A stretch of 64,000 nucleotides of DNA from Deltaproteobacteria bacterium GWC2_42_11 (GTDB taxonomy: Bacteria > Desulfobacterota > GWC2-55-46 > UBA9637 > GWC2-42-11): assembly GCA_001797495.1 (NCBI GenBank), contig MGPS01000070.1:15879-79878 (forward strand), given 5' to 3'. Below are positions 4,777-63,266 of this stretch, in pieces. Under the pieces are notes generated by a model, which searched no databases, was not told the origin of the DNA, and saw only the letters and a list, made by a program, of their open reading frames with translations. Position 1 is the stretch's first letter. Each line of letters opens with the position of its first letter. Both the position numbers and the translations under genes were made by a program.

Positions 4777-5215
4777 ATTATTAGAGATATGCTTAAAGTG
4801 CGGCGCATGTTACCATATATGCCCATCCTGTCTTAATATGGAAGGATATGACCCAAGACTCGTTATAAAGGATATACTCGCAGGGCAGTATGAAAAATGG
4901 CTTAAGTCTAAGTCAATCTGGCAGTGTCTTGAGTGCCATCACTGCCTTGAGATATGTTTCCAGCACTACGGCTTTGAAAATGCAATGACTGCGATGAGGA
5001 CACTTGCAGCAAAAAAAGGCACAACACCTCCACAGGTGAAGAAGGGCTGGGATATATTTATGAAGACAGGAAAACTAGGCGAACCAACGGCATCTGCAAG
5101 AAAGAAATTGAATCTGCCTGAGGCTGCAAAGAGCGGGGCAGAAGATTTTAAGAAGATAGTGAAGATTTATCAGGAGAGAAAAGAGACTAAAGAAAGACTG
5201 AAGACCAAAGACTGA
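4757..5215 (+). CDS. Heterodisulfide reductase subunit C-like protein (2x[4Fe-4S])
   Basis: Motifs CLKCGACYHICP and CLECHHCLEICF are present. The gene overlaps the hdrB-like stop. Confidence 0.65.
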   Translation: MESLNLKLLEICLKCGACYHICPSCLNMEGYDPRLVIKDILAGQYEKWLKSKSIWQCLECHHCLEICFQHYGFENAMTAMRTLAAKKGTTPPQVKKGWDIFMKTGKLGEPTASARKKLNLPEAAKSGAEDFKKIVKIYQERKETKERLKTKD

Positions 5216-5300
5216 AGACTTTAAATGCAGACTTTAGACCATAGACTTTAAAGCAGACCATAGACTAAAGGCTAAAAACCCTCTAGTCTATAGTCTTTGG
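5187..5300. repeat. TAGACT palindromic repeat element (family R3), copy A
   Basis: agactgaagac...agaccatagactaaaggctaaaaaccctctagtctatagtctttgg. It supplies the last codons and stop of the hdrC-like gene and ends at the RBS of the next gene. Confidence 0.65.
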
Positions 5301-5316: not shown

Positions 5317-6402
5317 GTGAGTCATAACTTTCAAAAAGACATTTCAGGCTGCGGTCTGATTGGTATTATAAATAAAGACCGTACGAGGATAAGCGGGAGT
5401 TTCGTAACTAAATCACTCTGCCTTATGAGGGACAGGGGGAATGGACTTGGCGCTGGTTATGCAGCATACGGCGTGTATCCCAAATATAAAGACCTGTATG
5501 CATTCCATATAATGTATGACGAACCGTCTGCGCAGAGGGATACAGAAGAATATTTAAAGAAAAATTATTATATAGAGAAAAAGGAACCGATGCCGACAGC
5601 GCCTGTGGAGGGTATTAAAATCCACCCCATCCTGTACAGGTATTTTGTAAAGCCTCTGTCAGAAAAGGCTGAAAGGGAATCTGCTGAACTGGAGGACGAC
5701 GACTTCGTTGTAAAGACTGTCATGAAAATAAACTCCGAGATAGATGGCGCATATGTGTTTTCCAGCGGCAAGGATATGGCAGTGTTCAAGGGTGTTGGTA
5801 TGCCAGGTGAGATTGCAAGGTTTTTCAGGATTGACGAATATGAAGGTTATATATGGACAGGACATACGAGGTTTCCGACAAATACTCCCGGCTGGTGGGG
5901 CGGGGCGCACCCGTTTACACTCCTTGACTGGTCGATTGTCCATAACGGGGAGATTTCTTCATACGGTATAAACAAGAGATACCTCGAGATGTATGGTTAT
6001 AAACTCACACTCCTGACAGATACAGAGGTTGTTGCGTATCTTTTTGACCTGCTTGTCAGAAGGCATGGTCTGGATGTGCTAACTGCATGCACAGCACTTG
6101 CAGCACCCTTCTGGAAAAATGTTGATACCATGCATGATGAAGAAAAAGAAGCGATGACCGCTTTAAGGGTGATATACGGGAGTGCATTGCTGAACGGTCC
6201 TTTCTCAATACTCTTCGGGCATAAGAATGGTCTTGTCGGTTTTAATGACAGGATTAAACTGAGGCCCCTTGTCGCTGCGACAAAAGGGAAAACCGTCTAT
6301 ATGGCTAGCGAGGAATCTGCCATAAGGGAGATATGTCCTAGCCCTGAAAAGATATGGTCGCCTAGGGCAGGCGAGCCTGTGATTGTTGAGTTGGAGAGTT
6401 AA
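5317..6402 (+). CDS. Class II glutamine amidotransferase domain protein (archaeal-type glutamate synthase large-subunit domain 1)
   Basis: The GCGLIGI Ntn-hydrolase nucleophile region and a GATase-2 fold pattern are present. A GTG start follows a GGAGG RBS. Confidence 0.7.
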   Translation: MSHNFQKDISGCGLIGIINKDRTRISGSFVTKSLCLMRDRGNGLGAGYAAYGVYPKYKDLYAFHIMYDEPSAQRDTEEYLKKNYYIEKKEPMPTAPVEGIKIHPILYRYFVKPLSEKAERESAELEDDDFVVKTVMKINSEIDGAYVFSSGKDMAVFKGVGMPGEIARFFRIDEYEGYIWTGHTRFPTNTPGWWGGAHPFTLLDWSIVHNGEISSYGINKRYLEMYGYKLTLLTDTEVVAYLFDLLVRRHGLDVLTACTALAAPFWKNVDTMHDEEKEAMTALRVIYGSALLNGPFSILFGHKNGLVGFNDRIKLRPLVAATKGKTVYMASEESAIREICPSPEKIWSPRAGEPVIVELES

Positions 6403-6478
6403 TGAGTTTAGGAGTTAGAGAGTAAAAACTCCTTAACCCCAGAACTCCTCAACTCCTTAACTAATTTTGGAGGTTTAA

Positions 6479-9435: not shown

Positions 9436-9616
9436 TTTCCCCTGCTATGTTCGTGATTAGCAGAATATTCAGAACCAACACCATCAAATAGGGAGCCTTC
9501 CCTGACTGACAGCCGACAATCCTGCTGGACGGGAAGTCGAAAGCAGTTAATTAAGGCACCCACCTATTTTATAGGTTCGAATAGACTGCTGACACGGCAT
9601 TACAGCGGGGGAGATA
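9436..9616 (+). ncRNA. ssrS: 6S RNA (ssrS)
   Basis: It lies between zapA and 5-formyl-THF cyclo-ligase, as in many bacteria. The 5' end UUUCCCCUGCUAUGUUCGUG pairs with the 3' end CACGGCAUUACAGCGGGGGAGA to form a closing stem. An internal ACCUAUUUUAUAGGUUCGAAUAGACUGCUGAC region resembles the E. coli 6S central-bubble flank. Length is ~180 nt. Confidence 0.75.
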
Positions 9617-9684: not shown

Positions 9685-9977
9685 AAAGAAGGTTAAAAGG
9701 GTTAGATACAAAAAAAAGGATATGTTTACTGGCAGTTTAAAGTTCATAAAGTTACAAGTTATAAAGTAAATGGCAATTCAAATGAAAAACATAGTGATAT
9801 TAAAGTTAATTAAAGTTCATAAAGTTGAAGGTCATAGAGTTAAAGAACATTTTAGGAACTCTATAAACTTTATGAGCTTTATAAACTTTATAACTTTATA
9901 ACTTTAAACCGATACATCTGTATATCCTTTGCTATAATCCCTTCTTTAAACCTTATCATTAGCCTTTCCTAAAAATT

Positions 9978-14174: not shown

Positions 14175-14372
14175 TAGTTTTTCTGGTGCGATTTTATATA
14201 GAGCGTCATAAATAATTACGCATCATAATCAATAAAACACAAGTATTTAATGCGTTTTATTTAAGCCATCAAATAGGTGATGGAGTTCACCTTTAACCGC
14301 TTTAATGGCTGATGACTCCTACAAATTATTGGGAACAGATTTAAAATCTGTCCCCAAAAGGAGGAGGCTGAC

Positions 14373-18547: not shown

Positions 18548-18715
18548 CGGTGTGCCTAATGCACAAGATGTTCACACCCAAAAATGCCCAGATGCAAGGC
18601 GGAGCAAGGCTTCAAGCGAGGCATACTTTCATAGTATGTTGAGCGAAGAAGCCGCAGCGACAACACACGGGGCACCCATTGCGGAGCAATGGGTCGGGGT
18701 ATTTTTGGGCGTGAA
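18548..18715 (-). repeat. Dispersed ~170-nt intergenic repeat (family R2), reverse orientation
   Basis: The reverse complement aligns with 38976-39140 over the core GTTGTCGCTGCGGCTTCTKCGCTCAACATACT...AAGTATGCC...TTGCTCCGCCTTGCA. Confidence 0.7.
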
Positions 18716-22861: not shown

Positions 22862-22996
22862 TTATAAATAATTCCTAAATCCTAATATCTAATTTCTAAT
22901 AAAATATCCAATGACTAAATTTCCAATGCCTTTATCTTTGACATTTGACATTTTATTAGGAATTAGGATTTAGAAATTAGACATTTTATTAGAGGC
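22862..22996. repeat. Large imperfect palindrome between nadE and ftsE
   Basis: ctaaatcctaat pairs with attaggatttag, and tctaatttctaataaaat pairs with attttattagaaattag. The arms flank a ~45-nt centre. Confidence 0.5.
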
Positions 22997-24785: not shown

Positions 24786-24834
24786 GTTTTTTAGCCTATC
24801 AAAAGGTATCAGGATTGTAAATATTAAAAACAAT

Positions 24835-25018
24835 CCGTAAAATAGCGATTAAAAACCTCGCTATTTTACAAACCTGCGATTTGCCTGCCATACTTCGTTA
24901 TCGGACAATTTTTACTCCTCACCGTATCGGTGAACATACGGCTCGTCGTAAAAATTGTCCGCTGCCTCGTCTGGCAGGCAACTTGCAAGTTTCCCCAAAA
25001 ATCAAAGTCTATTTTTGG
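24835..25018. repeat. 184-nt structured dispersed element (family R1), copy 1
   Basis: More than 90% identical to 53828-54011. It contains several perfect hairpins (aaaatagcga/tcgctatttt; ggacaatttttac/gtaaaaattgtcc; gcctgcca/tggcaggc; cccaaaaat/atttttggg). Confidence 0.75.
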
Positions 25019-25142
25019 GCAATGGATAATGGTCTACGCTTGCAATAAATTTATCCTGTAATAAATCCTGTAATAAATTTATCCTTGACAACTTGAGTAG
25101 AATTGTATTATGAATTAACACACAATTTAATATAGATATATG

Positions 25143-25259
25143 CTTATTCAGAGTGGTGGAGGGACTGGCCCTGTGAAACCACAGCAACCGGCCTGTTGCA
25201 AACGGGCGGCAGGTGCTAACTCCAGCAAGGTTTGTGATTAAAAAGCCTTGAAAGATAAG
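25143..25259 (+). promoter_or_regulatory. SAM-I (S-box) riboswitch
   Basis: P1 pairs CUUAUUCAGAG with CUUGAAAGAUAAG. Conserved cores GGUGGAGGGACUGGCCC, GUGAAACC, CAGCAACC and GGUGCUAACUCCAGCA are present. Confidence 0.85.
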
Positions 25260-25274
25260 ATTAGGTAATAAAAG

Positions 25275-25307
25275 CCTCTTCTTGATTTCAAGAAGGGGTT
25301 TTTTTTT
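25275..25307 (+). terminator. Riboswitch expression-platform terminator
   Basis: gcctcttcttga-tttc-aagaagggg hairpin followed by a T9 run. Confidence 0.7.
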
Positions 25308-25341
25308 GCAAATCATCAAAAGAAACAATAAGGAGCAGGAT

Positions 25342-27872: not shown

Positions 27873-27880
27873 AAAACAGA

Positions 27881-27967
27881 TTAAAGACTGAAGACCCGAG
27901 ACTTCAGACACAAGACTCAAGACCACAGATTTAAGACTCAAAACTTTAGTCTATAGTCTTAAGTCTG
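27881..27967. repeat. TAGACT palindromic repeat element (family R3), copy B
   Basis: agactgaagac...aaactttagtctatagtcttaagtctg. Shares agtctatagtct and agac(t/c)-type units with 5187-5300 and 40112-40187. Confidence 0.6.
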
Positions 27968-27986
27968 CATTTAAACGGAGGTTAAG

Positions 27987-28501: not shown

Positions 28502-28623
28502 GTTGAAACAGTTTAGACCGTTCAAACCGTTTAAGTAATTATTATCAGGGTAAATTCGGGATAAGAGTTTGCCCTTTTTGTTTAAGAAGATTCTTTACCA
28601 TTCTTGTAAGGAAAGGTTATAAT

Positions 28624-29562
28624 ATGAGCATACAGCAAAAAATAATCTGGGGTTGCAAAAATCCGAAGGCTTCTGTTCTTGAACTTGTTGGGAATACGCC
28701 TCTTGTCAGGATTAACAGGATTACAGAGGGTTTGAGCAAGGGTGTTCAGGTCTATGCAAAACTTGAATCATATAACCCCGGCGGCTCTGTAAAGGACAGG
28801 GCAGCATTTGGTATGATAAAGGATGCAGAAGATGCAGGCAGACTCACAAAAGATAAGATTATACTTGATTCAACATCAGGGAATACAGGTATTGCTTATG
28901 CATGGATTGGCACTGTTAAGGGTTATTATGTTGAACTTGTTGTGCCTAAAAATGTGAGTGAAGAAAGGAAAAAGATTTTAAAGGCATTTGGTGCAAAGAC
29001 AATCTTTTCAAACCCGATGGAAGGCTCTGACGGTGCCATAAGGCTTGCATGGAAACTTTATGTTGAAAACCCGGATAAATACTGCAAACTAGACCAGTAC
29101 AATAATCCATCCAATCCTCAGGCACACTATGAGACAACAGGTCCTGAGATTATAGAGCAGACAGACGGCAGGGTTACGCACTTTGTTGCAGGGATAGGCA
29201 CAGGCGGAACAATAATGGGTACAGGCAGAAGGCTAAAGGAATTTAACCGTGCAATACAGGTAATAGCAGTTGAACCTGCAACAGCGCTTCATGGTCTTGA
29301 AGGTTTGAAACATATGCCGTCATCAATTGTTCCAGGCATATACCATGAGGGAGAACTTGACAGAAAAATATCAGCGCCAACAGAAGAATCCTATGGAATG
29401 GCAAAGAGACTGGCAAGGGAGGAAGGGCTTTTTGTGGGGCAGTCATCAGGCGCTGCGATGTGGGGGGCGCTTCAGGTTGCAAGGGAACTTGAGGAAGGCG
29501 TGGTTGTTGTTATATTTCCTGATGGGGGGGACAGGTATTTGTCCACAGCATTGTGGGACTAA
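28624..29562 (+). CDS. cysM: Cysteine synthase (CysM/CysK family, PLP-dependent)
   Basis: SVKDRAA lysine motif, TSGNTGIA and GIGTGGT loops are present. Confidence 0.8.
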   Translation: MSIQQKIIWGCKNPKASVLELVGNTPLVRINRITEGLSKGVQVYAKLESYNPGGSVKDRAAFGMIKDAEDAGRLTKDKIILDSTSGNTGIAYAWIGTVKGYYVELVVPKNVSEERKKILKAFGAKTIFSNPMEGSDGAIRLAWKLYVENPDKYCKLDQYNNPSNPQAHYETTGPEIIEQTDGRVTHFVAGIGTGGTIMGTGRRLKEFNRAIQVIAVEPATALHGLEGLKHMPSSIVPGIYHEGELDRKISAPTEESYGMAKRLAREEGLFVGQSSGAAMWGALQVARELEEGVVVVIFPDGGDRYLSTALWD

Positions 29563-29587
29563 GACAACATTCTGCGAATGTTGAATT

Positions 29588-29687
29588 GTAAATTGAAGAT
29601 TGGAAGTTGGAAATTTTAAAATGGAATAAAAAGACAATTTGCAATTTAAATTTTACAATTTTCATTTTACAATTAGAGCGAAGCGAC
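29588..29687 (+). repeat. 105-bp duplicated leader element, copy 1 (upstream of mec)
   Basis: Near-identical to 30083-30197. It contains tandem gaagattg/gaaaattg octamers, then ttgcaatttaaattttacaattttcattttacaattagagcgaagcgac ending at the start codon. Confidence 0.7.
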
Positions 29688-29688
29688 C

Positions 29689-30099
29689 ATGCTTTATCTA
29701 TCTAAAGACATATATAACGAGATTATCAGCCATGCTGAGAAATCATACCCTTATGAAGGATGCGGTGTTCTTGTAGGCAGGGATAAGAGGGTTGTGAAGA
29801 TTTGTCCTGTTGAGAACATAAACAAAGACAGGGCAAATGACAGGTATGAGATAGACCCAAAGGATTTGCTCAGGGTTGAGAAAGGGGTGTCCGAAAAAGG
29901 GCTGAATGTCCTTGGGTTTTTTCATTCACATCCTGACCATCCTGATATGCCGTCTGAGTTTGACAGACAAAGGGCATGGCAATTTTATTCGTATATGATT
30001 GTATCTGTGCATAATGGAAAATCTGTTTCAGTAAAATCATGGACATTTGAAGATGAAAATGAACCATTCAGAGAGGAGGAGGTAAAGATTGAAGATTGA
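29689..30099 (+). CDS. mec: JAMM/MPN+ metalloprotease (Mec-like sulfur-carrier peptidase)
   Basis: EGCG...HSHPDHPDMPSEFD JAMM motif. Confidence 0.8.
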   Translation: MLYLSKDIYNEIISHAEKSYPYEGCGVLVGRDKRVVKICPVENINKDRANDRYEIDPKDLLRVEKGVSEKGLNVLGFFHSHPDHPDMPSEFDRQRAWQFYSYMIVSVHNGKSVSVKSWTFEDENEPFREEEVKIED

Positions 30100-30197
30100 A
30101 AATTGAAAATTGGAAATTGGAAATTTTAAAATGGAATAAAAAGACAATTTGCAATTTAAATTTTGCAATTTTCATTTTACAATTAGAGCGAAGCGAC
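30083..30197 (+). repeat. 105-bp duplicated leader element, copy 2 (upstream of E1-like gene)
   Basis: See copy 1. The 5' part overlaps the last codons of mec. Confidence 0.7.
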
Positions 30198-31019
30198 ATG
30201 AATTTCACAGAAGAGCAAATAGAGAGATATTCAAGGCATATAATCCTGCCTGAGGTCGGCGGCAAAGGACAGGCAAAGTTATTAACTGCAAAGGTCTTTG
30301 TGCTTGGTGCAGGCGGGCTTGGATCACCTGCACTTTATTACCTTGCTGCAGCAGGTGTAGGCACAATCGGCATAGCAGATGCTGATTGTGTTGATTTATC
30401 TAACCTTCAGAGGCAGATAATCCATTCTACATCAAAAATAGGGCTGCCCAAAGTGGAGTCAGCAAAAAGGACTATTGAAGACTTAAACCCTGATGTAAAG
30501 GTTATTGCATACAACGAAAGGCTCAATATTGGCAACATAACACAGATAATAAGGGATTATGATGTAATTCTTGACGGCAGTGATAATTTCCCAACAAGAT
30601 TTCTGATGAACGATGCCTGCTTTTTTGAAAAAAAGACACTTGTTTCAGGGAGCATGTTCAGGTTTGATGGTCAGGTTACAATATTCCAGCCGCATGAGGG
30701 TAAGCCGTGCTACAGGTGTCTTTACCCTGAGCCCCCGCCAAAAGGGCTTGTACCCAGTTGTCAGGAAGCAGGCGTGCTCGGTGCACTGGCAGGCGTGATA
30801 GGTGTTATACAGGCAGTTGAGGCGATAAAACAGGTTTTAAAGATAGGCGATGAACTTGCAGGATACTTACTTATATTTGATGCACTTGCAATGACATTCA
30901 GAAAGGTTAAGGTCAGGAGAGACCCGCAGTGCAGCCTTTGCGGTGATAATCCGACAATAAAGGAACTGATTATGTATGAAGAGACGTGTGAGATAAGGGA
31001 AAAGAGGTGTGAAAAATAG
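30198..31019 (+). CDS. moeB: ThiF/MoeB-family E1-like sulfur-carrier adenylyltransferase
   Basis: GAGGLGS nucleotide-binding loop and CxxC...CxxC Zn motif are present. Start is taken at MNFTEEQIERYSRH; the track ORF starts inside the upstream repeat. Confidence 0.8.
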   Translation: MNFTEEQIERYSRHIILPEVGGKGQAKLLTAKVFVLGAGGLGSPALYYLAAAGVGTIGIADADCVDLSNLQRQIIHSTSKIGLPKVESAKRTIEDLNPDVKVIAYNERLNIGNITQIIRDYDVILDGSDNFPTRFLMNDACFFEKKTLVSGSMFRFDGQVTIFQPHEGKPCYRCLYPEPPPKGLVPSCQEAGVLGALAGVIGVIQAVEAIKQVLKIGDELAGYLLIFDALAMTFRKVKVRRDPQCSLCGDNPTIKELIMYEETCEIREKRCEK

Positions 31020-36640: not shown

Positions 36641-36775
36641 TTCACGCTGAAGAATGTCCATCTGCGGCGTTGTTGCTGCAGCTTCTGCGCTCAACATACT
36701 ACAAAGTATGCCTCGCTTGAAGCCTTGCTCCGCCTTGCATCTGTGCCATTCTTGAGCATGAACTTGTTGTGAAGT
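36638..36775 (+). repeat. Dispersed intergenic repeat family R2, shorter copy
   Basis: agttcacgctga...ctgcggcgttgttgctgcagcttctgcgctcaacatactacaaagtatgcctcgcttgaagccttgctccgccttgca. It begins at the cysH stop codon. Confidence 0.65.
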
Positions 36776-38975: not shown

Positions 38976-39140
38976 AATAGTTAACGTTGAAAATACCCCG
39001 GCCCATTGCTTTGCAATGGGTGCCCCGTGCGTTGTCGCTGCGGCTTCTGCGCTCAACATACTGCAAAAGTATGCCCCCCGACAGTTTCAATCGGGGGTTT
39101 GCTCCGCCTTGCAGATGGGCAATTTTTGAGCGTCAACTAC
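38976..39140 (+). repeat. Dispersed intergenic repeat family R2, full-length copy
   Basis: aatagttaacgttgaaaatacccc...cccattgctttgcaatgggtgccccgtgcgttgtcgctgcggcttctgcgctcaacatactgcaaaagtatgcc...ttgctccgccttgcagatgggcaatttttgagcgtcaac. Confidence 0.7.
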
Positions 39141-39174: not shown

Positions 39175-40131
39175 ATGTCTTCTTATCCTTTAAGTGTAAT
39201 GCACAACTTCGGCGGTCTGGATGAGAAGGCATCCTCATTCAAAAAGGCAAAGTTTGTTGTCCTGCCTGTTCCGTATGATATGACAGCATCTTATCAGAGC
39301 GGGACAAGAAAAGGTCCGTATGCAATCATTGATGCGTCAACCCATATGGAATTATATAATGAGGAACTGGACATAGAGGCATATAAGGTCGGGATACACA
39401 CAATGCCTTATCTGGAGCCAACCTCAAAAGGTCCTAAGGAGATGGTGGATATTGTTTATGAGGCATCCAGCTATATAGTGAACTTAGATAAAATTCCGGT
39501 TATGCTCGGCGGTGAGCACAGTATAACCCTGGGGCTTGTCAGAGCGCTTAAAAAAAAATATCCGAATATGTCTGTTCTTCAACTGGATGCACATGCAGAC
39601 ATGAGGGATAAATATCAGGAAAGCCCGTATAACCATGCGTGTATTGCAAGGAGAATATCAGAGATGTGTCCGATTGTTCAGGTTGGCATAAGGAGTTTAA
39701 GTGTTGAAGAGGCAGAGTTCTTAAAAAAGGGGTTGGAACACAGAACACAGAAGTCAGAAAAAACGCATCACGCATCACACATCACGCATCACAGTATCCA
39801 TACCTATTTTGCAAAGGATATTATAAGAGGCATCCCTGTAGAGGATATATGCAGTAATCTGACGAATGAAGTTTTTATTACCATTGACCTTGATGTGTTT
39901 GACCCTTCAATTATGCCTGCAACAGGAACCCCTGAACCAGGAGGGTTGATGTGGTATGAAGTGACGGGATTATTGAGGAACATTGCTGCTAAAAAAGAGA
40001 TAATCGGTTTTGATGTGGTTGAGTTGTGCCCGCTGGCAGGTAATTTATCTCCGGATTTCCTTGCTGCAAAACTTGTTTATAAGATGATGGGATATATAGT
40101 AAAAGACAAAAAAGCAGACTATAGACTTTAA
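39175..40131 (+). CDS. speB: Agmatinase / arginase-family ureohydrolase
   Basis: Arginase-fold Mn-ligand motifs are present (GGEHSIT, DAHADM, DLDVFDPS). It carries a His-rich insertion encoded by a nucleotide repeat. Confidence 0.8.
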   Translation: MSSYPLSVMHNFGGLDEKASSFKKAKFVVLPVPYDMTASYQSGTRKGPYAIIDASTHMELYNEELDIEAYKVGIHTMPYLEPTSKGPKEMVDIVYEASSYIVNLDKIPVMLGGEHSITLGLVRALKKKYPNMSVLQLDAHADMRDKYQESPYNHACIARRISEMCPIVQVGIRSLSVEEAEFLKKGLEHRTQKSEKTHHASHITHHSIHTYFAKDIIRGIPVEDICSNLTNEVFITIDLDVFDPSIMPATGTPEPGGLMWYEVTGLLRNIAAKKEIIGFDVVELCPLAGNLSPDFLAAKLVYKMMGYIVKDKKADYRL

Positions 40132-40187
40132 AGTAGACCATAGACTAAAGACTAAAAAGTCTAAAGTCTATAGTCTAAAGTCTAAAC
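40112..40187. repeat. TAGACT palindromic repeat element (family R3), copy C
   Basis: gcagactatagactttaaagtagaccatagactaaagactaaaaagtctaaagtctatagtctaaagtctaaac. It supplies the last codons and stop of speB. Confidence 0.65.
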
Positions 40188-40206
40188 AAGAAGGAGGACT
40201 TGAAAA

Positions 40207-41698: not shown

Positions 41699-42721
41699 AT
41701 GAATGTTGCCATAACATACAACATAAAAAAGAAAGAGACTTTAACAGAGAATCTCCCCCCTGATTTTTATGCTGAATGGGATGATGATGAGACAATAGAC
41801 GCAATAAGGGATGCTGTCTCAAAAAGGCATGAGGTGGTTTTAATAGAGGCAGATAAAGAGGGGTATCAGAAACTTGTAAAAGAAAAACCTGATATGGTTT
41901 TTAATATTGCAGAGGGCATTAACGGCAGAAACAGGGAATCCCATATCCCTGCCATGCTGGAGATGCTCGGGATACCATATACAGGTTCAGGTCCTCTGAC
42001 ACTTGGCATCTGCCTTGATAAGGCAAGGGCAAAAGAGATACTCTCTTATTACAATATTCCAACTGCCAGATTTTTTGTATCACACTCAGCGCTCAGCGCT
42101 CAACACTCGGCGCTCTCCTTCCCCCTCATTGTCAAACCCCTTTATGAGGGTTCAAGTAAGGGCATAAGGAATGACTCTATAGTCTATAATATTGACGACC
42201 TCAATAAAAAGACTGAATGGGTCATTAACGAATACAGGCAGCCTGCCCTTGTCGAGGAATTCCTTGATGGGAGGGAGTTTACAGTCGCCGTGATGGGCAA
42301 TGGTGATGAAGTAAATTGCCTTCCTATTGTTGAAATAAATTATTCAACACTCCCTGAAGGGGTAAACCCGATTTATTCCTATGAAGCAAAGTGGCTATGG
42401 GATACACCTGATAACCCGCTGGAGATATTCACCTGTCCGGCACAGATAGAAGCCGAATTAACCCAGAGGATAGAAGAGATATGCAAAAGGGCGTTTCAGG
42501 TTCTGGACATCAAAGACTGGTGCAGGATAGATATAAGACTGGATGGTAAAGGTACTCCGCACATCCTGGAACTTAATCCGCTGCCGGGGATACTGCCTGA
42601 CCCTAAAAGTAATTCATGTTTTCCAAAGGCAGCAAGGGCTGCTGGCATGGATTACAATAGACTTATAAATACAGTACTTGATATTGCGTGTAAGAGATAT
42701 GGTATTTATGGCAACCGCTGA
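41699..42721 (+). CDS. D-alanine--D-alanine ligase family ATP-grasp protein, paralog 1
   Basis: Ddl-family motifs (GIPYTGSGPLTLGICLDK, LIVKPLYEGSSKGI, the ELNPLPG region) are present. The family tolerates an in-frame SALSAQHSALS repeat insertion. Confidence 0.65.
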   Translation: MNVAITYNIKKKETLTENLPPDFYAEWDDDETIDAIRDAVSKRHEVVLIEADKEGYQKLVKEKPDMVFNIAEGINGRNRESHIPAMLEMLGIPYTGSGPLTLGICLDKARAKEILSYYNIPTARFFVSHSALSAQHSALSFPLIVKPLYEGSSKGIRNDSIVYNIDDLNKKTEWVINEYRQPALVEEFLDGREFTVAVMGNGDEVNCLPIVEINYSTLPEGVNPIYSYEAKWLWDTPDNPLEIFTCPAQIEAELTQRIEEICKRAFQVLDIKDWCRIDIRLDGKGTPHILELNPLPGILPDPKSNSCFPKAARAAGMDYNRLINTVLDIACKRYGIYGNR

Positions 42722-53697: not shown

Positions 53698-53774
53698 TGG
53701 GGTGAGCGAGGGGATTTGAACCCCCAGCCCTCGGAGCCACAGTCCGATGCTCTAACCATTGAGCTACGCCCACC
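53698..53774 (-). tRNA. tRNA-His (GUG) with encoded G-1 and CCA
   Basis: The reverse complement folds as a cloverleaf: acceptor GGUGGGCG..CGCUCACC, anticodon loop CUGUGGC, T-arm GGGGGUUCAAAUCCCC, 3' CCA. Confidence 0.9.
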
Positions 53775-53827
53775 GTTTTTTAATTTATTATCATAGTGTG
53801 CATTATACTGTCAACATTTTAAAGTCC

Positions 53828-54011
53828 CCGTAAAATAGCGATTAAAAACCTCGCTATTTTACAAACCTGCGATTTGGCTGCCATACTTCGTTATCGGCCA
53901 ATTTTTGTTCCTCACCGTATCGGTGAACATACGGCTCGTCTCAAAGATTGTCCGCTGCCTCGTCTGGCAGCCAACTTGCAGGTTTCCCCAAAAATCAATG
54001 TCTATTTTTGG
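53828..54011. repeat. 184-nt structured dispersed element (family R1), copy 2
   Basis: See copy 1 at 24835-25018. Confidence 0.75.
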
Positions 54012-54077
54012 GAGTTCGGTAAACAATTTAAGAAATTTCATTGACTGCCGATTTAAAAGGTGTAAGAATATATATGT

Positions 54078-56789: not shown

Positions 56790-58072
56790 GTAAACTTCTA
56801 ATAAAAGGCGGGCATGTTGTTGACCCTGCAAATGGGATTGACGGGATATTTGATGTTTATTGTGTTGACGGCAAAATCGTTGAAATCACGCATCACGCAT
56901 CCCGCATCACGCACAACGATTGCACTGTCATAGATGCAACGGGTCTTCATGTTTTCCCGGGTTTTATTGACATGCACACGCATTTAAGAGAGCCGGGCTA
57001 TGAATATAAAGAGGACATAAGAACAGGCACAATGGCAGCAGCAGCAGGAGGTTTTACATCTGTTGCATGTATGGCAAATACTGACCCTGTTAATGACAAT
57101 TCATCTGTTACAAGATATATCCTGAAAAAGGCACAGGAAGAGGGTATTGTAAATGTCTTTCCTGTTGGTGCAGTAAGTAAAGGTTTAAAAGGTGAGATAC
57201 TTGCAGAGATTAGCGATTTGAAAGATGCGGGATGTGTTGCGATTTCAGATGACGGCAAGCCTGTTTCTGACAGCAGGTTGATGAGGCTGGCACTGGAATA
57301 TTCAAAACCTTTTAATCTGCCTGTTATATCCCACTGCGAGGATTTAACCCTTGCAGGGGATGGTGTTATGAACGAAGGTTTTATTTCTACAAAACTGGGT
57401 TTAAAGGGCATCCCGAATGCAGCAGAGGATATTATGGTTGCAAGGGATATTGCCCTTGCAGAACTTACACACGGGAAACTGCACATTGCCCATGTATCTG
57501 CATCTGGGAGTGTTGAACTTATAAGAAATGCCAAGTCAAGAGGTGTAAATGTTACAGCAGAGGTTACGCCGCACCACTTTACACTAACAGATGAATGTGT
57601 AACCGGCTACAACACCAATGCAAAGATGAACCCTCCGCTTCGCAGTATTAGTGATATAGAGGCATTGAAACAGGGGCTTAAACACGGAACAATAGATGTC
57701 ATTGCAACAGACCATGCACCACAGAATGCTGATGAAAAGGATGTGGAATTTGATAAGGCAGCAAACGGTGTTGTTGGACTTGAGACTGCATTCTCACTTT
57801 CTTTAAAACTCGTTTCAGACGGGCTTATTTCATTATCTGTCCTGATTGAAAAAATCTCTCTAAACCCTTCAAGGATTTTAGGGCTTGATAAAAAAGGCTC
57901 TCTAAAAGTCGGCAATGATGCTGATATAACGATTGTGGATTTAAATAAGGAATGGTTTGTTGATGTAAATAAATTAAAATCAAAGAGCAAAAATACTCCG
58001 TTTGAAAACTGGAAGATGAAAGGTAAAGTTGTGAAGACAATAGTTGGAGGGAAGGTGGTGTATGAGGGATAG
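56786..58072 (+). CDS. pyrC: Dihydroorotase (multifunctional-complex type)
   Basis: [10 protein letters not shown] metal-binding motif. It contains an in-frame CATCACGCATCACGCATC repeat coding [10 protein letters not shown]. Confidence 0.85.
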
Positions 58073-59240
58073 GAATAAGGCAGTCCTTGCACTTGCAGAC
58101 GGCACTGTATTTGAAGGTTATTCATTCGGCGCTGAAGGTGAGTCAATAGGTGAGGTAGTTTTCAATACCTCAATGACAGGGTATCAGGAAATTTTAACTG
58201 ACCCGTCTTATAAAGGACAGATTGTTACAATGACCTATACCCAGATTGGAAATTACGGGATAAATAGTGAGGATATTGAATCAGCAAGACCATGGATTGA
58301 AGGATTTATTGTAAAGGAATTTTGCCAATATCCAAGCAACTGGCGTTCAAAAGAGACTCTGGATAGTTATCTAAAAAGGCACAATATTGTTGGGATACAC
58401 GGAATAGATACAAGGGCTTTGACAAAGCATTTAAGGGATAATGGCGCTATGAATGGGGTTATATCAACTGTTGATTTGGACCCAGAAAGACTTGTTAAAA
58501 AGGCAAAGGGATTTCCATCCATGGCAGGGCTTGACCTTGCAAAAGAGGTAACATGCAAAGAGCCATATAAATTGAAGCAGGGTTTGTGGAATATAGAAAG
58601 AGGTTACTCATCACTCAGCACTCATCACTCGCCACTCTATAAGGTGGTTGCATATGACTTTGGCATAAAATACAACATCCTCCGAAACCTTGTTAATGTC
58701 GGGTGTGATGTTACAGTTGTGCCTGCATGGACATCTGCTGATGATGTTTTGAAGATGAACCCGGACGGCGTATTCCTTTCAAATGGCCCCGGCGACCCTG
58801 ATGCAGTTAAATACGCAATTGAGAATGTGAGAAAACTCATTGGCAAAAAACCAATATTTGGAATCTGTCTCGGACATCAGATACTTGGGCTTGCTCTTGG
58901 CGGAAAGACATATAAACTAAAATTCGGTCATCGCGGGGGCAATCAGCCTGTTATGGATTTAACAACAAGAAAGGTTGAGATTACATCCCAGAATCACGGC
59001 TTTGCAGTTGATGTTAATTCTTTAAAAGGCATTGCTGAACTTACACATATAAACCTAAATGACAAAACAGTTGAAGGGCTTGCACACAAAAAACTACCGC
59101 TATTTTCTGTCCAGTATCATCCAGAGGCATCGCCAGGTCCGCATGATGCAAGTTATCTTTTCAAAAGGTTTGTGGATTTGATGGAGGGTAAATGGTCATT
59201 GAATTTAAGCCTTTCAATGCAGGCTTTGAAGAATGCTTAA
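58062..59240 (+). CDS. carA: Carbamoyl-phosphate synthase small subunit
   Basis: Class I GATase triad region (GICLGHQ). It contains an in-frame CTCATCACTCAGCACTCATCAC repeat. Confidence 0.85.
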
Positions 59241-59845
59241 AAGAGTTTAAAGACTATTTTATAAATGAGACATTTGCCGAAGAGATAAAACTTGCAAAAG
59301 AAGAATTTACAAATTCTGGCATAGATTTAAATGAGGGTGAGAATTATGAGGAAAGGCTTAGTATATTTTTTGACTGGTATCTGTTTGACAGACCATTGTC
59401 AGATACAAATCTAACCCCTGTCAGATATTTTGTTGAAACCCTTTCAAACAAAGGAGATATATACGATGGATTTTCAAAAACCATACAAAGCATATTTGTT
59501 ATAAAGCGGAGGGGTATTGGATATGTAAAGGTAAAGGATATGTTTACAAGAAAAAAATATATAGTGAATGGCGATAATCTTATAGGTTTTGAAAAGAGGG
59601 ATATAATGGAGGCAAGGCTTATCCCGTTTGAGAGGTCTTACAGATTTTCAGAGACATTCTGTTTTTATCCTGATGATATAAAGACTATGCTGAAAAAAGA
59701 GATAAAAGAGGCAAAAAAACAGGAAGAGGCAGACTTTTATCCTGTTTTATTAAAGTTTAGAAGATTAAAAACCATGTCAGAGAGATTTACAAGGATGGAT
59801 ATAAAAAAGGTTTATACCTTAATGGAGGAAGGATTGCTTGCCTAA
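59192..59845 (+). CDS. Hypothetical protein encoded between carA and carB
   Basis: A 217-aa ORF with no recognisable domain. It overlaps the carA 3' end by ~49 nt and its stop overlaps the carB start. Confidence 0.35.
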
Positions 59846-62800
59846 ACGAACTGACATAAAAAAAATACTCATCATCGGCGCGGGACCTATTGTCATAGGC
59901 CAGGCATGCGAGTTTGACTATTCAGGCACGCAGGCGTGCAAGGCTCTAAAAGAAGAGGGTTATAAGGTCATCCTCATCAACTCAAACCCTGCGACCATTA
60001 TGACTGACCCGGAGATTGCTGACAGGACATATATTGAGCCGATTACGCCTGAAATAGTTGAAAAAATCATTGAGAAGGAAAGACCTGATGCAATCCTTCC
60101 GACTATGGGCGGACAGACCGCGCTCAATACAGCGGTGGCTCTGGCGGAATCCGGCGTTTTGGAAAAATATCATGTTGAGCTCATCGGCGCTAAACTCCAT
60201 GCAATAAAAAAGGCAGAAGACAGGGAACTCTTTAAAGAGGCAATGGAAAGGATTGGTCTTGAGGTGCCAAGAAGCGGTTATGCAAAGACCCTGACAGATG
60301 CAATGAGTATAATGGAGACCATGGATTATCCTGCAATCATAAGGCCATCTTTTACACTCGGCGGCACAGGCGGCGGTATCGCATATAACAGCGAGGAATT
60401 TAAGGACATGGTTCAGTATGGACTGGATGCAAGCCCGTATAGCGAAATCCTCATTGAAGAATCTGTAATAGGCTGGAAGGAATATGAACTGGAGGTTATG
60501 AGGGATGGTAAGGACAATGTTGTTATTATCTGTTCAATAGAGAATTTTGACCCTATGGGAGTCCATACAGGGGATTCCATAACTGTTGCGCCTGCCCAGA
60601 CATTAACAGATAAGGAATATCAGATAATGAGGGATGCGGCACTCAAGATTATAAGGGAAATCGGTGTTGATACAGGAGGCTCAAACATCCAATTTTCTGT
60701 TAATCCTCAAAATGGGAAGATGCATGTGATTGAGATGAACCCCAGGGTTTCCCGCTCATCTGCACTTGCAAGCAAGGCAACCGGTTTTCCTATTGCAAAG
60801 ATTGCCGCAAAACTTGCGGTAGGATATACGCTTGATGAGATTCCCAATGACATAACAAAAAAGACACCTGCCTCATTTGAGCCGACAATTGACTATGTGG
60901 TCACAAAGGTTCCGAGGTTTACATTTGAAAAATTTCCTGAGGCGGATGCTATACTCACAACACAGATGAAGTCTGTGGGAGAGGTAATGGCAATAGGAAG
61001 GACATTTAAAGAGTCTTTACAGAAGGCACTCAGGTCGCTTGAGATAGGGAGTTATGGGTTTGAAGAAAGGGTTCAAGGGGTCGGGGGTTCAAGGGTTAAG
61101 GAAGAGATTACTGAAAAACTCAGGACACCTAATTGGGAGAGGCTTTGGTATATTGCAGATGCCTTCAGAGCAGGCATGACTGTTGATGAGATATTTGATT
61201 TATCAAAGGTTGACAGGTGGTTTCTGAATAATATAAGGGAGATTGTGGAGTTTGAGAGTGAGTTAGAGAGTTTAGGAGTAAAAGAAAAGACAGTTAAGGA
61301 GTCAACTCCTCAACTCCTCAACTCATTACGGCAGGCAAAAGAACTTGGATTTTCTGACAAACGGATAGCACAGTTATCAGGTAAAACCGAAGCAGAAATA
61401 AGAGAGGCGAGAAAACAGGCAGGGGTTGAGCCTGTATATAAGACAGTTGATACATGCGGCGCAGAGTTTGAGGCATATACACCGTATCTGTATTCTGCAT
61501 ATGAAAAACCATTTTATAGCATAGAGCATGGAGCAGAGAGCAAAGAGCAAAAGAAATATCCCTATGCCCTATGCCCTATGCCCTATGCGCTTACTGTTGC
61601 TTGTGAATCCAACCCCACCACCCGCAAAAAAGTCATAATCCTCGGCAGTGGTCCCAATAGAATCGGTCAGGGCATTGAGTTTGATTACTGCTGTGTCCAT
61701 GCAGCATTTGCATTAAAGGAAGATGGCATCGAGACCATAATGGTAAACTGCAATCCTGAGACAGTATCAACTGATTATGACACTTCTGACAGGCTCTATT
61801 TCGAACCCCTCACATTTGAAGATGTTATGAACATAATTGAAAAGGAGAAACCTTTTGGCGTTATTGTCCAGTTCGGCGGGCAGACGCCTTTAAAACTTGC
61901 AGTGTCTCTGGAAAAGGCTGGAGTAAAAATCCTCGGCACATCGCCTGATTCCATTGATATCGCAGAAGACAGGGAAAGGTTTGACAAACTCCTCACAAAA
62001 CTAAATCTAAAAAGACCTGAAAGCGGCATTGCCCGTTCAATTGATGAGGCAATAAAGGTTGCAAATAAAATTGGGTATCCTGTTATGGTAAGACCTTCCT
62101 ATGTACTCGGCGGAAGGGCGATGGAGATAGTCTATACAGAGGAGAGTTTAAAGGACTACATGAAAAGGGCTGTTGAGGCATCCCCTGAACACCCTGTCCT
62201 GATTGATAAATTTTTAAACAATGCAACAGAGGTGGATGTTGACTGCGTTTCTGATGGTAAGGATATTGTTATTGGTGGTATTATGGAGCATATTGAAGAG
62301 GCAGGCATACATTCAGGTGATTCGGCATGCTCAATACCGCCGTATTCTCTTGATTTAAATATCATTGATGAGATAAGAAGGCAGACAATTTTGCTTGCAA
62401 AAGAATTAAATGTAATAGGACTAATGAATGTCCAGTTTGCAGTGAAAAAAAATCCCCCCATCCCCCCCTTTGAAAAAGGGGAGATTGAGGGGGGATTAAA
62501 CAAGGGGCAAGGGTCAGAAATATATGTTCTTGAGGTTAACCCAAGGGCATCAAGGACTGTTCCATTTGTAAGCAAGGCAATAGGAAAACCCCTTGCAAAG
62601 ATTGCTGCAAAGGTTATGGCAGGTAAGACCCTTAAGGAATTAGATTTCACAAAAGAGATTGTGCCAGGGCATATTTCTGTAAAGGAATCTGTCTTTCCAT
62701 TTATAAAATTTCCGGGTGTTGATACGATCCTTGGTCCTGAGATGAAGTCAACAGGAGAGGTAATGGGCATAGATAAAGATTTCGGCAGGGCATTTGCAAA

Positions 62801-63266
62801 GGCACAGATTGCAGCAGGGACAAAACTGCCACCCCCACCTTTATCCTCCCCCTTAAAGGGGGAGGGGAGGGGAGGGGGCAAGGTTTTTATAAGCGTAAAA
62901 GATGAGGATAAACAAGAGGCCATATCAGCGGCAAAACGGCTGAGGGAGATGGGCTTTGAGATAGTTGCTACAAGCGGTACAGGAAAATATTTAAAAGATA
63001 ATGGGGTTGATACAGAGTTTGTATATAAGGTTGGAGAGGGAAGGCCGCATATAGTGGATAAGATAAAAAGCGGCGATATTGCTATGGTTATAAATACTTC
63101 ATTTGGTGCAAAGGCAGTTAAGGATTCCTTTTCAATAAGAAGGTCAGCGCTTGTCTATGGTGTGCCTTATTTTACAACGATTTCAGGCGCAAAGGCAGCA
63201 AGCCTTGGTATAGAGGCACTCATAAAAGAGGGCATGGGAGTAAAGCCGCTGCAGGAATACAATTAA
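59838..63266 (+). CDS. carB: Carbamoyl-phosphate synthase large subunit (with several short in-frame insertions)
   Basis: Two ATP-grasp halves and an MGS-like domain are present. It is collinear with E. coli CarB except for insertions at 61559-61586, 62446-62515 and 62844-62865. Confidence 0.9.

Follow-up and report, generated by a model that had tools for sequence, protein, structure and literature searches.

The subject of this report is a duplicated leader that precedes two consecutive sulfur-relay genes, mec and a moeB-like gene, in a stretch of 64,000 nucleotides (the window) of Deltaproteobacteria bacterium GWC2_42_11 (assembly GCA_001797495.1, contig MGPS01000070.1, positions 15,879 to 79,878). 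Each of the two leaders is a copy of a hairpin element, built of heptamers and closed by a conserved tail, that occurs generally at gene junctions and is not a control site specific to sulfur genes. From 5' to 3' its layout comprises an optional small GC hairpin, a purine-rich AATTGNA array, a loop, a pyrimidine-rich TNCAATT array and an unpaired, near-invariant tail of 13 nt. The explanation toward which we lean is that of a dispersed and oriented intercistronic cassette of about 90-125 nt, similar to a miniature inverted-repeat transposable element (MITE), in which a hairpin is joined to a ribosome-binding tail and which is kept because it leaves the operon expressible.

Two copies of one hairpin element

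A repeat search of the window recovered a direct repeat of 103 nt (29585-29687 and 30095-30197; all coordinates are those of the window unless a relative is named), the copies of which are 96% identical and align without gaps. A first-pass annotation had described repeats of about 105 bp, each ending exactly at a start codon. This holds for copy 2, which ends at 30197 and directly abuts the ATG of the moeB-like gene at 30198, while copy 1 ends at 29687 and is followed by one extra C before the mec ATG at 29689. A 36-nt core of the right arm occurs at only two sites in the window when up to 3 mismatches are allowed (0 expected, from 100 shuffles), and an nhmmer search of the window with the family profile returned the same two copies only, at 29633-29687 (E = 4e-11) and 30143-30197 (E = 1.2e-11). 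The arrangement is present on nine contigs of independent ENA/JGI assemblies, with 4 positions of single-nucleotide polymorphism, and the duplication is therefore real and not an assembly artefact. Several short contigs stop inside copy 2, as a repeat would predict.

The tandem units had been taken for octamers. Tandem Repeats Finder (TRF) assigns them a period of 7 (30088-30125, 5.4 copies, 93% matches) and a separate periodicity scan agrees, so that they are heptamers. The TTTNCAATT units described in the second part of each repeat are present, but they are the reverse complement of the units on the left: (AATTGNA)n in the left array pairs with (TNCAATT)n in the right array, and each copy is therefore an imperfect hairpin, which the earlier description had overlooked. 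An inverted-repeat search gives arms of 40 nt that are 75-77% complementary, with a loop of 11 nt. The minimum free energy of the RNA is -35.5 kcal/mol for copy 1 (z -4.7) and -25.2 kcal/mol for copy 2 (z -3.4). On the 3' side of the right arm is the unpaired tail of 13 nt, which reads AGAGCGAAGCGAC in both window copies. Copy 1 is preceded by a separate hairpin of 19 nt (29565-29583), placed between the cysM stop codon and the left arm. The overlap of copy 2 with the last codons of mec, noted earlier, is confirmed: the stop codon TGA (30097-30099) lies inside the heptamer array, which starts at 30085, and the repeat encodes the last 5 codons of mec together with the stop. A TTG at 30096 overlaps this TGA and shares the reading frame of the moeB ATG at 30198, and copy 2 is fully open in that frame. 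Use of the TTG would extend the moeB N-terminus by 34 aa; the public gene calls use the ATG.

Related copies are numerous. A pattern comprising right arm and tail, TTCATTTTRCAWTDGAGCGMAGCRAC, matched 30 loci in a collection with one genome per GTDB species, where about 0.01 would be expected from the length of the pattern, and 14 of these 30 loci are in one metagenome-assembled genome (MAG), CAYRBN01. With a second pattern 40 loci were found in metagenomes. The scan pattern would not match the tail variant of the window, CAATTAGAGCG, and our count of copies in the host's own genome covers the 64-kb window only. The carrier MAGs are labelled Nitrospinota, Nitrospirae/Nitrospiria, Candidatus Stahlbacteria, WOR-3, Edwardsbacteria and several 'Deltaproteobacteria'. 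According to its record name the Nitrospinota MAG has about 58% GC, yet its copy of the element is AT-rich. In two relatives of the window, L011 and L057, the element is present at the corresponding junction or junctions.

Alignment of 40 copies yielded the family consensus ...ATAAATTTRCAATTTGCATTTTGCAATTTTCATTTTGCAATGGAGCGAAGCGAC and the tail consensus GGAGCGAAGCGAC, with a sharp 3' boundary at ...GCGAC. When a hidden Markov model of the right arm only was run against 646 kb of fetched DNA it found 51 arms, 45 of them with the tail, and at least four of the six tail-less arms, probably every one, correspond to left arms read backwards. Because 45 of 51 right arms carry the tail and the rest are mostly reversed left arms, the tail is an integral part that orients an otherwise palindromic element. 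Many full-length copies have in common a 5' module, CAACATTC-N3-4-GAATGTTG, the stem of which covaries: across ten loci 97.4% of cells are paired, both members have changed in 5 of 8 pairs, and none of 500 shuffles did as well. The hairpin is kept in 17 diverged copies (z -1 to -5.6). In one MAG many copies are without the left arm but keep the right arm, the tail and the position.

The tail pattern had no match in the viral contigs of IMG/VR, and blastn against plasmids and phages gave none. Rfam returned nothing at the gathering threshold, and at E <= 10 the interval 29500-30260 gave two chance-level matches (E >= 0.85). A search of the literature for the tail sequence in both orientations gave no match, and one on heptamer hairpins, STRR sequences and intercistronic stem-loops brought up a single close precedent, a paper on TAACTGA repeats (PMC4679880). 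The AATTG hairpin element is widespread and, it appears, undescribed. As single-stranded DNA, the GCGAAGC within the family tail forms an exceptionally stable mini-hairpin. Covariation was sought in this mini-hairpin; there are few tail variants, and neither register is consistently supported by them. At three loci of CAYRBN01 (L018, L023 and L038) the loop of the element or the region upstream of it hosts a small repeat, GTGGAGCAAGMYGCYCYAYCTGTTA, and the intergenic DNA of this MAG also contains recurring GGTAACCGCAAGGGTTACC palindromes and GAATCTGCGTCCTA, which suggests nested small elements.

Placement at gene junctions and a possible mode of action

A co-oriented start codon follows the tail within 17 nt in 54 of 68 distinct copies. 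The copies are thus not scattered at random without regard to gene starts, the outcome named in the first-pass annotation as counting against its interpretation. The distances are bimodal, with 34 copies at 0-5 nt and 20 at 9-17 nt, and in the latter class a Shine-Dalgarno (SD) sequence of the AAGGAGG type comes after the tail. For the 0-5-nt class the GGAG of the tail, at 9 nt, fits the SD-like cores of the window, which are mostly 4-11 nt from starts. On the other side of the element, the stop codon of a co-oriented open reading frame (ORF) lies within 300 nt in 53 of the 68 copies. Spacers for which both neighbours are seen measure 54-284 nt, with a median of about 100, so that the element fills the spacer. 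An upstream stop was found for 37 of the 39 copies that have a left arm, mostly between -12 and +34 nt from the start of the arm, and in 14 it lies inside the arm. This strong orientation toward starts must reflect selection at the level of expression or else some targeting mechanism.

The downstream genes are unrelated to one another and include rpoB, rpoC, rpsG, a gene for an EF-G-like GTPase, rpsJ, rpsK, rpmG, glnA, ispH and a trpB-like gene (identified by Pfam, others by their N-termini). One locus of 8 kb, with rpoC, rpsG and the EF-G-like gene, contains three copies, a parallel to the pair that flanks mec. The first-pass annotation had proposed that a duplicated promoter, operator or 5' untranslated region (5' UTR) would give mec and moeB a shared regulation, with sulfur or methionine regulators as candidates. 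A leader is indeed duplicated at two consecutive starts, but the promoter or operator part of the proposal is unsupported, and the link to sulfur is contradicted by the presence of the same right arm and tail before dozens of unrelated housekeeping genes in several phyla. An upstream ORF that begins at the ATG in the consensus CAATGGAG was considered and rejected, since, with distances of 0-17 nt, this ATG and the downstream gene are in no fixed frame to each other.

We propose that the element behaves as a copy-and-paste junction cassette that would survive, or even be favoured, since the operon that receives it stays expressible. As 7 and 3 share no common factor, heptamers that contain TGA or TAA would bring translation to a stop within 7 codons whichever frame it arrives in. 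The hairpin would fold away an insert of about 90 nt and in this way keep the stop codon near the start codon, and the tail would supply a GGAG Shine-Dalgarno sequence 9 nt from the ATG. The right arm, which is G-poor and U-rich, is a plausible S1 or standby site. This arm would become accessible when a ribosome terminates at the foot of the stem, with translational coupling as the predicted result. A bolder version of this proposal, which we regard as rather unlikely, sees in it an autonomous gene junction of a plug-in kind that spreads horizontally between phyla. The left arm would stop translation in any frame and the hairpin would draw stop and start together. The right arm and the tail would make up a portable initiation region, in which U-rich heptamers act as a platform for S1 or cold-shock proteins (Csp) next to the SD sequence; melting of the stem by the upstream ribosome would uncover this region and so enforce coupling. 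A process at the level of DNA that recognises ends such as GCGAAGC-GAC and is common to these lineages might create the heptamer-hairpin spacers, exchange them and keep them palindromic.

Comparison with L011, the closest relative, has implications for the history of the copies. The two window copies are 95% alike and are 80-82% identical to either L011 copy, while the L011 copies are 86% alike. Paralogs that resemble each other more than they do their orthologs indicate gene conversion or recent re-copying. In L011 (2031-2540) the second copy precedes an unrelated ORF, MNNIYLPYLATIEDIYEE..., and not moeB, which suggests a rearrangement with its breakpoint at the element. The earlier suggestion that the repeat could mediate recombination is made plausible by both comparisons.

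The AATTG family is one of several in a broader class. The window has 11 period-7 arrays, shuffles have none, and periods 5, 6 and 8-11 are represented by 0-2 arrays; period 7 is dominant in nearly all the host-genome groups sampled. (A sliding-window scan with RNAfold was swamped by spurious hairpins, and criteria of periodicity and inverted repetition were used instead.) At least 8 other spacers of the window have the same hairpin architecture with other heptamers, and some hairpins lie in frame within genes. One pair with the AGACT unit, 5236-5296 and 40116-40176, is 89% identical over 61 nt and thus consists of dispersed copies. In 17 of 18 hairpins examined the purine-rich arm is 5' and the pyrimidine-rich arm 3', a property that does not depend on the strand read. 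A carB-like ORF (59838-63266, 1142 aa) differs from E. coli CarB by three in-frame insertions, one of 31 aa at aa 558-588, one of 21 aa at aa 873-893 and one of about 8 aa close to aa 478-485, and these coincide with heptamer or octamer hairpins or with C-run/G-run repeats at 61518-61590, 62454-62520 and 61248-61325.

Five relatives of the window (L011, L010, L012, L014 and L057), the Mec proteins of which are 80-63% identical, have heptamer or octamer hairpins in the cysM-mec and post-mec spacers, and these hairpins start just past the last conserved codon and finish at the ATG. The unit is AATTGNA in the window and in L011, GAGTTNA in both spacers of L010, GGCNATA with AGACTNN in L012, and AGGTTNA with AAGTTNN in L014; L057 has a TCAGTKA/TAACTGA hairpin before mec and an AATTG element before moeB. 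No empty site was found at the mec junctions of the relatives examined. A comparison of an occupied with an empty ispH junction (L048 and L014) is invalid, as the upstream genes differ.

Alternative explanations and known systems

Several observations weigh against the cassette explanation or against parts of it. The use of the tail as an SD sequence, the coupling and the binding of S1 are all predicted from sequence. Both window tails read AGAG and not GGAG, so that mec and moeB are left without a good SD sequence; they may be more dependent on coupling, or may simply be poorly translated. In the copies and loci examined we found no terminal inverted repeats (TIR), no target-site duplication (TSD), no transposase and no empty site, and mobility is therefore deduced from distribution only. 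The taxonomy is that of MAG labels, which may include mis-binned contigs, and the scans of the collections were anchored on the tail or the right arm, which introduces an ascertainment bias. The arms have also been examined for signs of pairing as RNA. In 17 hairpins of the AATTG family the mismatches between arms comprise 23 that would be wobble pairs in the sense strand, 15 in the antisense strand and 104 of the transversion type, and in 14 other hairpins the corresponding numbers are 19, 24 and 60; both sets are close to random expectation. The sense RNA is more stable than the antisense RNA in only 11 of 17 family copies and in about 8 of 18 hairpins of the class, and the 5' stem varies by double Watson-Crick substitutions only, with no G-U intermediates. 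There is no sign of selection on the RNA fold, and selection at the level of RNA is not supported. Because neither wobble pairs nor stability favour the sense strand, the palindrome appears to be made or maintained at the level of DNA, at the birth of the element or by correction of one arm from the other. Finally, promoter-like sequences lie within the element: both window copies contain TTTAAA-17-TACAAT, a 9/12 match to the sigma-70 consensus, and at locus L033 a 10/12 match, TTGACT-16-TACAAT, makes use of the element's own TACAAT.

These promoter-like sequences bear on the proposal that the leader is a duplicated internal promoter or operator conferring a shared sulfur or methionine response on mec and moeB, or, in a variant, a set of heptad operators for a ribbon-helix-helix protein. 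Direct and inverted 7-bp iterons are a known operator architecture, for example in the heptads bound by the omega repressor of plasmid pSM19035, and speak in favour of this proposal. A sigma-70 promoter calls for -35 and -10 hexamers 16-18 nt apart, with A at position 2 and T at position 6 of the latter. Matches of the kind seen in the window copies are, however, barely enriched in the region (22, as against 14.9 +/- 4.1 in shuffles), and the TACAAT of the window is replaced by TGCAAT, which lacks the -11 A, in 20 of 30 family members. Near-consensus sigma-70 promoters are found upstream of the element at L033 (11/12, 10 nt away) and L038 (12/12, about 115 nt away), which places the element in the transcribed 5' UTR at these two loci. 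Many copies are inside conserved operons, where internal promoters would be unexpected, including the rpoB-rpoC, rpsG-fusA and tuf-rpmG junctions. The lack of a common function among the downstream genes rules out a sulfur or methionine operator, and at least 8 heptamer families in one genome would require as many binding proteins. Given the match at L033, some copies may act as promoters; a promoter or operator role of the element as such is unlikely, and the shared response of mec and moeB we consider improbable. Equally doubtful, in our view, is an intercistronic signal for RNA processing or stability, in which RNase III would cut the AU-rich duplex or RNase E/Y would cut an arm; a hairpin would then remain at the 3' end of the upstream cistron, and the downstream cistron would begin with a short stretch of structure. 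The arms of 35-45 nt, with imperfect stems of roughly 25-35 pairs located between cistrons, the conserved GC hairpin on the 5' side and the occurrence within polycistronic operons are what such a signal would look like, but the lack of a sense-strand bias in stability or wobble pairs, and the many copies in one MAG that dispense with the left arm while right arm, tail and position are kept, are difficult to reconcile with it. Three other readings were tried and rejected: an intrinsic terminator (no site in 29563-29688 or 30100-30197, the stems being AU-rich and followed by GAGCGAAGCGAC), a sigma-54 promoter in the tail (no GG at -24) and a CRISPR repeat in the tail (no spacers).

Another view is that the element is a selfish or neutral palindromic repeat of the MITE or REP kind, for which gene starts are tolerated insertion sites and the tail is the recognition sequence of a mobilising enzyme. 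We take this to be a possible explanation, though not a probable one. It accommodates the many dispersed copies across phyla (including the AT-rich copy in the MAG of about 58% GC), the random and strand-symmetric mismatch spectrum of the arms, the purely Watson-Crick changes in the stem, the occupation of orthologous spacers by different families, the class hairpins in frame inside carB and the sharp 3' boundary at ...GCGAC. Against it stands the placement of the copies, 54 of 68 being co-oriented and at most 17 nt from a start. Where this distance is 5 nt or less, as in 34 copies, the tail is the only possible SD sequence, and such placement calls either for selection by translation or for a target specificity without precedent. 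The lack of a TIR, TSD or transposase also counts here. That the pair is a one-off local duplication or an assembly artefact would be in keeping with the presence of only two copies in the 64-kb window, but is scarcely credible given the nine independent contigs, the approximately 70 related copies elsewhere and the element at the same junction in L011 and L057.

The cassette that we favour has its closest published parallel in the TAACTGA heptamers, direct repeats that are found in marine Beggiatoaceae and also in some Cyanobacteria and Bacteroidetes (MacGregor 2015, PMC4679880). In the BOGUAY genome 169 sets are direct and one, without predicted structure, is inverted; the largest class ends 1 nt upstream of the start codon, and MacGregor noted that the repeats guarantee stops in all frames (PMC4679880). 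The AATTG element resembles them in its tandem heptamers, which are mostly intergenic, point to starts and end a few nt from them, often share sequence with the end of the upstream ORF and contain stops in all frames. In both cases the downstream genes are unrelated and include ribosomal and RNA polymerase genes, a canonical SD sequence is often absent, and the distribution is patchy across phyla with no transfer mechanism established. The element differs in its unit (TNCAATT / TTTTRCA), in forming a hairpin with an inverted array, and in having a near-invariant 13-nt tail and an optional 5' module. The window contains no tandem TAACTGA, which is found at orthologous spacers only in L057 and partly in L014. 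On the reverse strand of L057 the 3' arm of the hairpin in the cysM-mec spacer, ACTGATAACTGATAACTGATAACTGTTAACTGAG-ATG, is a TAACTGA-type array that ends ...TAACTGTTAACTGAG-ATG, and the published repeats thus occur in a 'deltaproteobacterial' groundwater lineage, paired there with an inverted array.

The cyanobacterial STRR1-3 or long simple-sequence heptanucleotide repeats (LSSR; Mrazek et al. 2007), as far as they are described in PMC4679880, form a second heptameric group. Shared with them are the dominance of period 7, intergenic arrays, a large number of unit sequences and small repeats nested in arrays or loops; the element departs from STRR in its uncultivated groundwater and sediment hosts, its inverted arm pairs, its abutment on start codons and its conserved tail. 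Elhai and colleagues reportedly described, in 2008, small dispersed repeats that lie within tandem heptamers of Nostoc. Like REP, BIME and REPIN sequences and the bacterial MITEs (Correia, RUP, ERIC, BOX), the element is short, multi-copy, palindromic, non-coding and intergenic, often within operons, and it can form hairpins in mRNA or single-stranded DNA and serve as a substrate for recombination. The 68 distinct copies at non-homologous sites in about 0.65 Mb of fetched loci, and the 14 pattern matches in one MAG, are MITE-like. Unlike REP and REPIN, which are imperfect palindromes of 20-40 nt with a GTAG-type 5' head, it has heptamer arms of about 40 nt and no conserved GTAG head at either end (40 aligned copies), and while REPs are mostly 3' of genes the element is strictly oriented to, and placed against, the downstream start. 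Unlike a MITE it has neither TIR nor TSD: by inspection, the ends are CAACATTC... and ...GGAGCGAAGCGAC, and the flanks (the stop region on one side, the SD sequence or ATG on the other) are not duplicated.

Rickettsia palindromic elements (RPE) insert in frame into coding genes. The carB insertions accounted for by hairpins of the class and the last 5 Mec residues encoded by copy 2 are comparable, but the element is built of heptamers and is associated with starts, and the two copies studied are intercistronic. The mycobacterial intercistronic repeats known as MIRU overlap, at their ends, the stop codon of the gene before and the start codon of the gene after, and a role in keeping translational coupling intact has been proposed for them; they are direct tandem units of 40-100 bp with small ORFs, whereas the element consists of heptamer hairpins. 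Functional analogues include the RNase III hairpins between the early cistrons of phage T7, the hairpins that bridge SD and AUG in genes 38 and 25 of phage T4, and the Omega leader of tobacco mosaic virus (TMV), an AU-rich, S1-dependent enhancer with ACAAUUAC repeats. With these the element has in common an intercistronic hairpin next to a ribosome-binding site, a G-poor, A/U-rich tract 5' of the SD sequence or AUG, and a stem that joins stop and start; there is no sequence homology, and the likeness is one of possible working only. The plastid intercistronic expression element offers an analogue with respect to processing (PMC2230500). An integron attC site was considered and rejected, as by inspection the ends are without RYYYAAC and GTTRRRY cores, and mec is not a cassette of that type because it is syntenic between cysM and moeB-like genes in L010, L012, L014 and L057. 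The element is not a member of any named family.

If our explanation is correct, these repeats represent a general class of bacterial gene-junction elements and not the private trick of two sulfur-relay genes. Whole stop-to-start spacers would be exchangeable hairpins of 7-nt repeats, with the 13-nt tail of one family conserved across phyla at the position of ribosome binding. The unexplained TAACTGA and STRR repeats would be linked to uncultivated groundwater lineages, and heptamer repeats would acquire the structure of an element, with two ends, an orientation and a tail. There would also be a testable idea of how operons can take up repeats and still be expressed. In practice such elements interrupt short-read assemblies, give rise to spurious extensions at the C- or N-terminus and add peptides to conserved proteins such as CarB. 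They can mislead gene callers and motif-based predictions of regulons, as they did in the sulfur-regulation reading of the first-pass annotation.

Gene cluster and other features of the window

The genes around the two copies were identified from public gene calls and Pfam on identical contigs, and are ordered ThrC-like, sulfite-reductase-like, TusA, ThiS (ending GGKF), NIL, cysM, mec, moeB and radical SAM. An S-adenosylmethionine (SAM) riboswitch at 25141-25261, and not the repeat element, is likely the specific regulator of this cluster. It has its own terminator hairpin (25259-25314). A further terminator-like hairpin with a T-run is located at 28547-28575, between the gene for the NIL-domain protein and cysM, and cysM-mec-moeB might therefore be partly uncoupled in transcription from the riboswitch-controlled genes upstream. 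Table 1 collects the features.

Table 1. Parts of the two element copies, adjacent genes and further heptamer hairpins, in window coordinates.
Feature	Position	Strand	Evidence or remark
5' module, small hairpin CAACATTC-TGC-GAATGTTG	29565..29583	+	directly after cysM stop 29560-29562; sequence, fold
Copy 1 left arm: AATTGTA AATTGAA GATTGGA AGTTGGA AATTTTA...	29584..29623	+	TRF period 7, inverted repeat
Copy 1 loop	29624..29634	+	inverted-repeat search, fold
Copy 1 right arm, pyrimidine-rich, G-poor: CAATTTG CAATTTA AATTTTA CAATTTT CATTTTA CAATT	29635..29674	+	inverted repeat, TRF, nhmmer
Copy 1 unpaired tail AGAGCGAAGCGAC (family consensus GGAGCGAAGCGAC)	29675..29687	+	sequence, family alignment
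mec-like JAMM/Prok-JAB metallopeptidase gene	29689..30099	+	Pfam PF14464
Copy 2 left arm: AAGATTG AAGATTG AAAATTG AAAATTG GAAATTG GAAATT...	30085..30133	+	inverted repeats, TRF, periodicity scan
Copy 2 loop	30134..30144	+	inverted-repeat search, fold
Copy 2 right arm	30145..30184	+	inverted repeat; nhmmer
Copy 2 tail AGAGCGAAGCGAC, abuts ATG 30198	30185..30197	+	sequence, family alignment
moeB/ThiF-like adenylyltransferase gene	30198..31019	+	Pfam PF00899
cysM-like pyridoxal-phosphate (PALP) enzyme gene, upstream of copy 1	28624..29562	+	Pfam PF00291
SAM riboswitch heading sulfur-carrier gene cluster	25141..25261	+	Rfam RF00162, 81.5 bits
AAGACTN / NAGTCTT heptamer hairpin, same architecture, TusA-ThiS spacer of sulfur cluster	27880..27970	+	
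AGACT-family heptamer hairpin	5190..5300	+	61-nt stretch 89% identical to 40116-40176
AGACT-family heptamer hairpin, paralog of 5236-5296	40108..40190	+	
Heptamer/octamer hairpin GAGTTNGA / AACTCCTN, spanning stop-to-SD spacer	6385..6465	+	
Heptamer-to-nonamer hairpin, AAAGTTN / AACTTTAT	9795..9912	+	
Heptamer hairpin between two minus-strand genes; sole one of 18 with pyrimidine-rich 5' arm	22868..22990	-	

Single-arm heptamer arrays with the units ACGCATC, ACTCATC and CTCAGCG occur within long ORFs (39757-39792, 56882-56913, 58600-58637, 2218-2234 and 42085-42115). They presumably represent insertions of repeats that keep the frame and contain no stop codon; the two with the unit ACGCATC are 88% alike. 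Other Rfam matches above the gathering score in the window are a 6S RNA (9436-9615) and a fluoride riboswitch (14267-14328). A dispersed direct repeat of 204 nt, 91% identical, is located at 24816-25019, just 5' of the SAM riboswitch, and at 53809-54012, beside a tRNA (53701-53773). A further set of dispersed intergenic repeats, GC-richer and not heptameric, lies at 18580-18705 (minus strand), 36667-36764 and 38990-39138, with complementarity or identity of 91% over 86 nt and 98% over 44 nt.

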